A stretch of DNA of 64,000 bases from Escherichia coli (GTDB lineage Bacteria > Pseudomonadota > Gammaproteobacteria > Enterobacterales > Enterobacteriaceae). Made by a program: the position numbers. The first letter of the stretch is position 1. Each line of letters starts with the position of its first letter. Location of the stretch: NCBI RefSeq assembly GCF_045037415.1, contig NZ_CP173440.1; one strand, given 5' to 3'. Below, in pieces: positions 54,001 through 57,000 of this stretch.

Positions 54001-57000
54001 GAATGCAGGCCAACCAGCAGATATTTTTTCTGTCCGACGGCGCGGATAATCTCAGGGACCTCCAGTTCGGTATGTACCCTGAGTCAACGCATGTGCTGGA
54101 CTGGTTTCATATCACCATGAGGCTGAAGGTGCTCATGCAATATGCCCGGGGACTGCTGGTATCAGATCCAGAGGCGGGGAGTAAAGTTCTGGCACTGCTG
54201 GAAAGCATTAAACGATATCTCTGGCATGGCAATGTTGTCGCTGCGCTGGAACATATTGATAATTGCGTTATGTATTGCGATGACCCTGAACTCAGCTATC
54301 CTAGCCTGAAATCCCTGCAAAAACATCTGGATGAAATGTATACCTACATCCGGAATAATAAGATGATGATCCCAAACTACGGCGAAATGCGTCGGTACGG
54401 AGAGCCGGTATCAACCGCGTTTGTGGAATCCACGATCAATGAAGTGATCGCCAGACGAATGGCCAAAAAGCAGCAGATGCAGTGGAGCAGAAAAGGGGCT
54501 CATTATTTGTTACAGACCCGGACCGCCGTTTTGAATAACGAACTGCAGGATAAATTTGTCTGCTGGTATCCGGGTTTTCAAAGTGACGGGAAGGGACCAG
54601 CGATGGCAGCATAGCTCACGCTGCCCCAATATTTTTTATGCTCTCGGTCGTATGGAAGCTGGACCGCCTCGGTCGTGATCTTCGTCATCTCATTAATACA
54701 GTGCACGACCTGACCGCGAGGGGGACCGGTCTGAAAGTGCTGACCGGTCACGGGGCGACTATCGACACAACAACGGCCGCTGGCAAGCTTGTCTTCGGTA
54801 TCTTTGCCGCACTGGCGGAGTTTGAGCGCGAACTGATTGCTGAAAGAACGACTGCAGGTCTGGCATCAGCAAGAGCCCGTGGGCGGAACGGCGGCCGACC
54901 TTATAAAATGACGCCAGTCAAACTGCGACTGGCAATGGCATCAATGGGACAATCAGAAACAAAGGTCAGTACGCTATGCCAGGAACTTGGGATAACCCGG
55001 CAAACTTTGTACAGGCATATTTCCCCTGTTGGTCAACTGCGGGCGGACGGGATCAAGCTGCTCAACCGTGGATAATTTGAACGGACGGAAAAATCTGGGG
55101 TTCCGGCGTAGTACCCCTATCACCTCCACATTTTTGCAACAGTGCCTTATAAATGGCAGCCTTATGTTTACTTGCCAAGATGGGCTACCATATGATGTTT
55201 TATACTGAGCAATATTAATATTATCTTTAATGGAAAAATTAAGCCCACTAAGTGACCCACTGCTATATGGCTCTATTGTGAAGACGCCTGAGGGTAAAAA
55301 TTTATACATGGTTGTCCCTATGTCTATTATTGCAAGGTTGACAATATTATTCGTTTTATAAATTTGAGCGTTTAAAATCACACATCAAAGCAATTAGTCA
55401 GGATAAACAACAATACCCAGTGCTTCGAGAATCAGTTCTTGCTGCCAGGCTGCAATTTTGATACCTGATGTATCGACTTTGCGGGGATCTAAACCGTCGA
55501 GTTCGGCGTGGCATAAATTGGCACCCTGTAGGCTAAATTGCCCCCAGACATCTTCGGAAAAAACACCTCGACTTAAGTCTGACTCTTTCAGTGATGCACC
55601 CGCTAGGTTCGTTCCTATCCAGCGATTTTCAAACAACTCACATTTTTCTAAACAAACCCTCTCCATATTGGCATAGGAAAGATTACATCCAGAAATAAAT
55701 GCTGAGCAAAAGTACATACGATTACTCACTTGATGGGCAAAGTTTGTTCGGGAAAAGTTGGCACCTTTTAAATCACACGCACGGAACTCTATACCGTAGC
55801 AATTGGCATTACTGAAGTTTGCCATCGCAAGTTGGCATTGTTGGAAACTTGCATCACGAAGATCTGCGACATCAAAGTGGCAGCCTTCGATATCACCCTG
55901 TTCAATGAACTTGCAGTTGACGAATGTCGTATCACGCAAGTTAGCACGTCGAAAGTCGCTGCGAATGAATGTGCAAGCGGTGAAGGTGAGATCACTTAAG
56001 TCTTTATGTGAAAAGTTGTGGTGCCGATATGTATGATTGTAGGTTTCCATGAGTACTCCTTGTTGAAAGGAGGGCTAGACTACCATTATACATATGCCAA
56101 GACATTAAAATAAAAGCCTGTTACATCAACACATTACAACCCCTCAATTTACCTGTTTTAAGTGGTCAAATTGGCGCGTAGAGCGCCTATCGCTCTTGCA
56201 TTGGCACGCGGCCCTGTTGAAAAAAGTTATTCGCTTTAGATAGGGTTAGGAGAGCCGTGCTTCGCCGGTAAAAAATCGGACTATCCGACGCAGGGCGGAC
56301 TCATCGGCGGAGAAGCAAACTTTGACTATATCTCCCTACACTTGGAAGAGGGCTAGACTGGCCCCATAGATCACCAGACACTTCGACTCTCTTAAAATAA
56401 GAGGTAGTCTTGGAACTATGTTTAATACCAGTCAGAACGATAAGATGGTTGAAGTGTTATCAGGACCTGAGCGGCGTCGGCGTCGTACACCGCAGGAAAA
56501 AATTGCCATTATTCAGCAGACTATGGAGCCCGGTATGACCGTGTCTCATGTCGCGCGCCTGCATGGCATCAATGCAAACCAGATATTCAAATGGCGCAAG
56601 CAATATTAAGACGGTTCACTGACGGCTGTTGCATCGGGCGAGGAAGTGGTGCCGGCCTCCGAACTCGCTGCCGCCAATAAGCAAATTCGCGAACTCCAGC
56701 GCCTTCTGGGCAAAAAGACGATGGAAGCCGAGATACTCAAAGAGGCCGTGGAGTTCGGCCGGGCAAAAAAATGGATTGCGCATGCGCCCTCGTTGCCTGG
56801 GAACGACGAATAAGCGACGTTTGCAGAAGTCTTGGCGTGTCGCGTGCGCAGTTGAGCATTCGGGTTCACCGGCCATCTGACTGACAGGATCGCAGACGGC
56901 AGCCCCGTTCTGACGATACCACCGTATTGTCCCGGATAAACATGGCGGTGGCTGACCTGCCGACGTATGGTTATCGCCGTGTGTGGGCGCTGCTGCGACG

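Follow-up and report, generated by a model that had tools for sequence, protein, structure and literature searches.

How an IS26-type terminal repeat came to stand alone beside the quinolone-resistance gene qnrS1, and what it records of the history of that gene, is the question raised by a 64,000-nucleotide stretch of Escherichia coli DNA (contig NZ_CP173440.1 of assembly GCF_045037415.1; hereafter the window). An initial annotation, made from the sequence alone, had placed an orphan terminal inverted repeat (IR) of the insertion sequence (IS) IS26 at 55131-55145, between a resolvase gene fragment and qnrS1, and had proposed that it was the footprint of a lost IS26 or a related IS6-family element marking a past rearrangement breakpoint. 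Our analysis leads us, with high confidence, to the explanation that the repeat belongs to the end of a Serratia-type relative of IS26 that was cut by insertion of a Tn3-family transposon and is now an inert scar beside Vibrio DNA.

A lone IS26-type repeat faces qnrS1

A sequence search of the window found the exact 14-mer TTTGCAACAGTGCC on the plus strand at 55133-55146; the repeat had been recognized correctly, and its coordinates were shifted by one to two bases. The features needed to place it are as follows.

55133-55146, minus strand: IS26-type terminal IR, exact over 14 bp, reading GGCACTGTTGCAAA on this strand, with its outer tip at 55146 facing qnrS1
55394-56050, minus strand: qnrS1 (NF000056, E = 5e-156), whose product is QnrS1 at 100% identity in plasmids
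30823-31642, 42445-43264, 44284-45103 and 59710-60529: complete 820-bp IS26 copies, both ends of each being the exact 14-mer

The window holds nine exact copies of TTTGCAACAGTGCC, eight of which are the ends of these four complete IS26 copies; the ninth is the orphan, the sole copy that does not end a full IS26. A one-mismatch pair of the 14-mer bounds an IS6100-type element of 880 bp (38333-39212). Because only about 0.0005 exact matches are expected by chance in 64 kb over both strands, the orphan is real, in agreement with the initial annotation, which had judged a chance match very unlikely. With up to two mismatches permitted, matches to the IS26 IR still averaged only 0.81 in dinucleotide-shuffled sequences. 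Compared with this value, five two-mismatch matches lie outside any IS end in the window (21957, 54191, 55834, 56210 and 57332); that at 56210 is conserved Vibrionaceae sequence and three others fall within the ISKpn19 transposase gene, qnrS1 and an IS3-family orfB. These matches are probably chance-derived, despite their excess over the shuffled sequences. Among the complete IS26 copies, the one at 59710-60529 differs at three positions (207, 208 and 480, read on the plus strand) from the other three, which are mutually identical, and resembles few-base IS26 variants such as the IS15-delta type.

The repeat is the end of a Serratia-type relative of IS26

The resemblance to an IS end extends beyond the 14-mer, defining a longer remnant.

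55118-55146, minus strand: 29-bp remnant of an IS26-family element of Serratia type, transposase-proximal (IRL) end; the IS body would have run leftwards

The remnant has the features of an IS6/IS26-family end, in that its tip is the 14-bp IR GGCACTGTTGCAAA and its subterminal sequence is continuous with that of a full-length member. Alignment to the IS26 ends present in the window shows the 29 bp (TATCACCtCCacatTTTTGCAACAGTGCC) to be identical at 24 of 29 positions to the transposase-proximal end of IS26 (TATCACCaCCgactATTTGCAACAGTGCC). The mismatches lie in the 15 bases to the left of the 14-mer, of which 10 are identical to IS26 and all 15 to a Serratia relative of IS26. The initial description of the adjacent sequence as not IS26 thus holds on both sides of the repeat, yet the 15 bases on its left are of IS26-family origin.

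The parent element was found by scanning metagenome contigs for the diverged subterminal sequence GCAAAAATGTGGAGGTGATAH, a query worded to leave out the qnrS1 junction. Three contigs matched, two of which (L081 and L082) hold complete 819-bp elements with IS26-type 14-bp IRs on both ends and 89-90% nucleotide identity to IS26. The copy in L081 is frameshifted. That in L082 encodes an intact transposase of 234 amino acids, 95% identical to Tnp26, which is exactly WP_046899122.1, an "IS6 family transposase [Serratia marcescens]". The element encoding this protein occupies a single chromosomal site, downstream of feoB; the copies come from three NCBI assemblies and from three contigs derived from the Sequence Read Archive (SRA), and all of them carry the exact 29-mer. 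In all, the remnant is identical at 29 of 29 positions to the 819-bp elements in L081, L082 and L095-L100, and at 28 of 29 to a related IS of Serratia liquefaciens plasmid p1-159 (transposase WP_142816575.1; plasmid typed as IncI1). From remnant position 30 onward, similarity to both the Serratia-type elements and IS26 is at background (3-5 of 16). The diverged relatives were mapped as follows.

L082, 3684-4502, minus strand: IS26 relative
L081, 2595-3413: IS26 relative
L084, 3001-3820: IS26 relative

No 8-bp target duplication was found around the copies in L081, L082 and L084. More broadly, IS26-family elements that are 89-92% identical to IS26 and have identical 14-bp IRs were found in three settings: the chromosome of S. 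marcescens, plasmid p1-159 of S. liquefaciens and a soil-type metagenome. The absence of significantly diverged IS26 isoforms was reportedly remarked on by Harmer and Hall (2019).

The parent shares with IS26 its 14-bp IR, its gene layout and nearly its length (819 versus 820 bp), and differs from it in nucleotide sequence across the element. Under the ISfinder rule, isoforms of one IS have >95% nucleotide or >98% amino acid identity (quoted in PMC6807381). At 89-90% and 95%, respectively, and with the remnant matching IS26 at 24 of 29 positions, the parent lies below these limits and, judged by sequence identity, is therefore a distinct IS26-family member, about 90% identical to IS26, and not IS26. 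Of the two sources first suggested, a related IS6-family element is thus borne out (29/29 against the 819-bp Serratia type) and IS26 itself is not. The Serratia copies, situated beside feoB or on the IncI1-typed plasmid, are complete; they neither adjoin qnrS1 nor carry a Tn3-family insertion. The window holds 29 bp only, with no DDE transposase gene and no second end. In PLSDB, BLAST with the 30-mer and with the whole parent IS, whose matches were swamped by IS26, recovered no copy at least 95% identical to the parent, either whole or as a large fragment; the best match was that of S. liquefaciens p1-159, at 92%.

Could the remnant instead derive from IS26 itself, point mutations having built up beside the IR? 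The 14-bp IR is identical and IS26 is abundant both in the window and in qnrS1 plasmids, but the 15 subterminal bases carry five mismatches to IS26 and none to the Serratia-type element, and local decay on that scale is implausible in a module otherwise at least 99% conserved over about 1,850 plasmids. The exact 29/29 match to a distinct, intact IS already refutes this origin, to which we assign almost no probability. We hold with high confidence that the remnant is the end of a Serratia-type relative of IS26.

The outer tip is joined to Vibrio mytili-like DNA

On its qnrS1 side, the IS26-family tip is joined directly to Vibrio mytili-like DNA inside an amidase gene.

55147-56262, minus strand: V. 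mytili-like chromosomal segment of the qnrS1 module, 1,116 bp, 93.5% nucleotide identity to the V. mytili-type contig L102 (aligned ranges: window 55147-56262; L102 2789-3920; L006 3789-4856)
55147-55309, minus strand: decayed 5' fragment of a Vibrio amidase gene, by alignment and translation against L102, L104 and L106; ends at the IS tip

The segment is made up of the amidase fragment, an 84-bp spacer, qnrS1 and 212 bp upstream of it, and the IS tip lies within the amidase gene, 247 bp beyond the qnrS1 stop codon. Decay of the amidase fragment comprises a 12-nucleotide deletion and a frameshift. In a scan of species-representative genomes, the closest chromosomal homologue of QnrS1 was that of V. 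mytili CAIM 528 (97% amino acid identity), which matches the window at 93.4% nucleotide identity from 56262 down to 55207. CAIM 528 diverges at the equivalent of 55207 and its contig ends 7 nucleotides later, which leaves the 3' boundary to be drawn from other contigs. Three of these (L102, L104 and L106) encode a V. mytili-type QnrS together with an intact amidase gene that starts 84 bp after qnrS. Over the final 60 bp before the boundary the window is 97% identical to L102 and L106, and homology stops at ...CCATTTATAA, where GGCACTG of the IS tip begins. Against V. mytili, Photobacterium and Enterovibrio alike, homology ends upstream at 56262, while these genomes remain similar to one another beyond that point; 56262 is thus a genuine edge of the mobile module. 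An identity of 93.5% falls short of a recent-origin match. The probable true donor is a relative of V. mytili that has yet to be sequenced.

Divergence of the amidase gene at the 55207 equivalent is seen in three assemblies, CAIM 528 among them (L006 at about 4856-4863, L103 at about 3856-3974 and L105 at about 3856), and their contigs stop shortly beyond it, which suggests a separate insertion or repeat 60 bp from the site of the IS26 relative in the qnrS1 module. An open reading frame (ORF) of 135 amino acids at 54974-55381 on the minus strand spans the amidase fragment, the IS remnant, a Tn3-family IR and the antisense 3' end of tnpR; it is a chimeric artefact whose weak amidase match (E = 5e-4) stems from the Vibrio gene fragment.

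A second IS end on the opposite side of qnrS1 was also sought. The candidate, a site at 56210-56223 matching the IR at 12 of 14 positions, is conserved chromosomal DNA of Vibrio, Photobacterium and Enterovibrio and its tip is wrongly oriented. A structure of the mobile insertion cassette (mic) type, or one of the miniature inverted-repeat transposable element (MITE) type, around qnrS1 likewise fails, as there is a single IS-type end and no pair of outward inverted repeats brackets the cargo.

The inner break coincides with a Tn3-family terminus

The IS breaks off on its other side at position 29/30, and this point coincides exactly with the tip of an intact Tn3-family IR.

55080-55117, minus strand: Tn3-family terminal IR, 38 bp, GGGGTACTACGCCGGAACCCCAGATTTTTCCGTCCGTT on this strand; begins GGGG, and its tip at 55117 adjoins the IS remnant
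54646-55075, plus strand: 3' part of a Tn3-family resolvase gene (tnpR fragment), identified by resolvase matches; its 5' end was removed by ISKpn19

The 38-bp IR starts four bases past the stop codon of the tnpR fragment, the full-length product of which (204 amino acids) is present in L004, L005, L087 and L089. The 55080-55117 segment recurs in >1,000 plasmids that lack qnrS1. In three relatives, which have the matching IR at tnpA or tnpR ends, homology is lost exactly at the CCCC tip: L001 and L002 are complete transposons, from a Salmonella and an E. coli plasmid, respectively, and L003 is an isolated remnant of a tnpA end. A perfect 5-bp direct repeat, GATCA, lies on both sides of the complete L002 element, indicating that the tip at 55117 is correctly placed and that elements with such an IR do transpose.

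With both edges of the remnant fixed, one can judge the proposal that the 14-mer arose by chance or belongs to conserved DNA other than an IS, for instance of Vibrio chromosomal or Tn3-family origin. The look-alike at 56210-56223, which proved to be conserved Vibrionaceae chromosomal sequence, lends it some substance, and the initial annotation had itself stated that its claim would fall if the repeat were part of a longer conserved non-IS sequence. The repeat is indeed conserved in qnrS1 contexts, but as IS-derived sequence: the Vibrio-type contigs L102 and L106 diverge precisely at the IS tip, the Tn3-family relatives diverge precisely at their IR tip, and the 29 bp in between are a perfect match to an IS end. 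Together with the chance expectation given above, these results refute the proposal, whose probability we put close to nil.

An intact transposon terminus lying against a truncated IS is what insertion of a Tn3-family element into the IS predicts, and we infer such an insertion. Were it to have happened, the far side of the transposon should once have carried its far IR tip, the 5-bp duplicate and the rest of the IS, that is, CCCC followed directly by TGATAAAATTATGG; a searchable form of this partner-IR signature (IR tip, 5-bp duplicate, remaining IS) is GTAG[T/A]ACCCCTGATAAAATTATGG. Several points weigh against the overall explanation. Neither the remaining half of the interrupted IS nor the 5-bp duplication TGATA (IS strand) predicted beside the far end of the transposon was found, and the insertion is deduced from a single junction. 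No intact IS stands beside qnrS1 among ten diverse contexts of the exact QnrS1 protein, the inertness of the remnant is likewise inferred, and the parent IS may already carry a name.

The missing duplication and second IS half also speak for truncation of the IS by deletion or illegitimate recombination, with the transposon end lying alongside by coincidence or through a later deletion, and several later rearrangements have clearly affected the region. However, the break falls on the very base at which an intact 38-bp terminus ends, a match that a random deletion endpoint would seldom produce, and the adjacent deletions made by IS26-family elements take flanking DNA and spare the interior of the IS. 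We regard truncation by deletion as improbable and retain insertion of a Tn3-family transposon as the likely cause of the break.

The junction is a fixed feature of the qnrS1 module

The comparison with qnrS1-bearing plasmids that the initial annotation had proposed shows how widely this arrangement is shared. Spanning both junctions, a stretch of 521 bp has at least 99% identity in 1,965 PLSDB records, of which 1,838 cover it in full, and the exact 30-mer occurs in about 1,870 records. Among ten deliberately diverse contexts of the exact QnrS1 protein, eight retain the junction; the other two have lost the remnant through secondary truncation closer to qnrS1. In pLAO96 the remnant has been deleted by MITESen1; a link between MITESen1 or TIME units and the remnant was considered and dropped, as the MITESen1 IR differs and the element merely removes the remnant in that plasmid. 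Since the junction is identical in about 1,850 plasmids, it formed once, before the qnrS1 module spread, and is not a rearrangement of the replicon represented by the window. It is, in short, an ancient, fixed feature of the qnrS1 module. The past breakpoint first suggested for the qnrS1 context is hence present twice over (55117/55118 and 55146/55147), without being specific to this replicon.

A proposed history and the question of capture

These observations are consistent with a history in four steps. A Serratia-type IS would have arrived in the amidase gene beside qnrS, and a Tn3-family transposon would then have entered it 29 bp inside its transposase-proximal end. The remaining IS and the far end of the transposon may subsequently have been lost via module exchange with another Tn3-family element, and ISKpn19 would afterwards have truncated tnpR in the lineage of the window. 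The state before the Tn3-family insertion would be recognizable by CCATTTATAAGGCACTGTTGCAAAAATGTGGAGGTGATAAAATTATGG, in which the amidase fragment is joined to an uninterrupted IS.

Whether the IS26 relative was also the agent that brought qnrS1 out of its chromosomal setting is a separate matter. We suggest, tentatively, that the element whose 29 bp survive here may have been the first to mobilize qnrS1. Under such a scheme, the Serratia-type element, residing on an enterobacterial plasmid, would make a copy-in cointegrate at the amidase gene of a V. mytili-like chromosome, and imprecise resolution would then remove the adjacent 1.1 kb with qnrS. The flank adjoining the remnant tip is ATTTATAA (8 bp), the opposite end of the IS having been lost; at the donor locus, capture would be marked by the far end of the IS followed by ATTTATAATGCCTTGTG, representing the 8-bp duplication in the amidase gene, with ATTTATAA on both sides.

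Alternatively, the IS26 relative was not the capturing agent. The Vibrio fragment would already have been on a plasmid when the element inserted into it or shortened it through an adjacent deletion, and the junction would date from after the original mobilization. We consider this slightly better than an even prospect. The parent IS is known only from Serratia and from an Enterobacterales-type plasmid and not from Vibrio, the opposite boundary at 56262 has no IS end, and other elements have been put forward: one report proposes ISEcl2 as the mobilizing element (PMC5027574), and IS2 is listed in another (PMC7782503). What such a late arrival explains less readily is that the captured segment is very short, with one edge exactly at an IS26-family tip, as expected of an IS26-type cointegrate at the chromosomal locus that was imprecisely resolved.

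The remnant is probably inert today

In its present form the remnant appears to be an inert scar, as it lacks both a transposase gene and a partner end, its identity with the resident IS26 copies is limited to 14 bp, and no promoter-like signal is associated with it. A lone IR might still function, either as an alternative end for Tnp26 (for example, paired with the left tip of the IS26 at 44284) or as the -35 box of an outward promoter, given that its 14 bp are the same as those of IS26 and that properly oriented IS26 left tips lie upstream. A promoter search, though, returned no promoter-like site that uses the TTGCAA of the IR, and the orientation is such that leftward DNA, not qnrS1, would be mobilized. 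For efficient targeted cointegration in the IS26 family, the transposases must be identical and the reacting end must share an extended stretch of identical DNA, as Harmer and Hall showed (2021; PMC7885326), so that extended identity and a cognate IS are called for, and the junction has remained static across about 1,850 plasmids. A present function is for these reasons very unlikely, and an inert scar is the reading that we keep.

Comparison with published models of the qnrS1 region

In the portion of the literature accessible for this locus, the module is described as truncated ISEcl2, qnrS1, truncated tnpR and ISKpn19, or as part of Tn6292, the published model of a qnrS1-bearing Tn3-family unit transposon (PMC5027574). 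The window has the same arrangement of tnpR, qnrS1 and ISEcl2 remnant with ISKpn19 nearby, but differs in that the model puts qnrS1 inside the transposon, whereas here a 38-bp terminal IR comes directly after tnpR, before the remnant and qnrS1. The IRL of the model, GGGGTTCGAGGTTCAATCGTGTAAAAAACCACGTTAAG, is of a different IR type from 55080-55117 (compared at L005 19564-19601 and 23615-23652). In the IncN plasmids pP378-IMP and pIMP-1495, which define Tn6292, the partner IR is absent and the 38-bp IR type occurs once; the window, L004 and L005 likewise have no partner IR of this type. With one copy of this IR type and an IRL of another type, Tn6292 looks, from sequence comparison, like a hybrid built from two Tn3-family elements. 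In this view qnrS1 lies outside the element that bears tnpR, and what once flanked the original insertion on its far side has been replaced.

Short, repeat-bounded units that carry qnrS genes without a transposase offer a further likeness, namely the mic of qnrS2 (PMC3913671) and the TIME-COMP units with qnrS1 (PMC13367494). The window differs from them in having one IS-type end, the candidate second repeat at 56210-56223 being wrongly oriented Vibrio sequence, and the IR of MITESen1 is not that of the remnant. Ebmeyer et al. (2021) reported the origin of QnrS as unconfirmed, with V. splendidus at no more than 79% identity and IS2 as the sole associated element (PMC7782503). The accessible literature, of which some sources are available only in part, contains no mention of an IS26-type remnant, of a Tn3-family IR after tnpR or of the amidase fragment; an earlier description is possible.

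Neighbouring features of the window

The module is bordered by further mobile elements on both sides.

53220-54614, plus strand: ISKra4-family (ISKpn19) transposase gene (NF033572, E = 1e-113; ISKpn19 annotation in L004 and L005)
56263-56355, no strand assigned: 93 bp of DNA of unassigned origin, between the Vibrio segment and an IS3-family (ISEcl2-type) remnant
57470-57507, plus strand: Tn3/Tn2 IRL, GGGGTCTGACGCTCAGTGGAACGAAAAC..., which cuts the ISEcl2-type IS3-family remnant

The tip of ISKpn19 maps to 54645, and the element (51887-54645) contains three ORFs, encoding a pRiA4b ORF-3 family protein, a serine recombinase of 190 amino acids and the ISKra4-family transposase. With this recombinase and the truncated tnpR side by side, the "resolvase" signal of the region comes from two unrelated genes. 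To the right of the Vibrio segment, the stretch at 56263-56355 had no match outside qnrS1 contexts; the retention of no more than its first 38 bp in a few plasmids (H201-H203) suggests a further recurrent breakpoint near 56300. The Tn3/Tn2 IRL at 57470 belongs to a different Tn3-family element from that to the left of qnrS1. Tn3-family tnpA fragments extend over 57503-59694, and the Tn2 tnpA is cut by IS26 at 59710. As the gene is split into two minus-strand ORFs (57503-58231 and 58246-59694) and truncated by IS26, the Tn3/Tn2 transposase gene is a pseudogene.

Significance

IS scars are routine in resistance plasmids, and the value of the 29-bp remnant is historical, with no likely function today. 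It marks exactly one edge of the Vibrio-derived DNA that carries qnrS1, which is among the most widespread plasmid quinolone-resistance genes. The analysis supplies the base-level limits of the captured segment (55147-56262) and a much closer donor-type context, in V. mytili-type contigs with 93.5% nucleotide identity and synteny into the amidase gene, compared with at most 79% for V. splendidus. It also supplies a specific candidate IS with concrete, searchable sequence signatures, evidence for Serratia relatives about 90% identical to IS26 and, as far as the accessible part of the published Tn6292 model extends, an internal transposon terminus that it overlooks. If the tentative view that the IS26 relative captured qnrS1 is true, both the donor lineage and the capturing IS would be named for a major plasmid quinolone-resistance gene of unconfirmed origin (PMC7782503).

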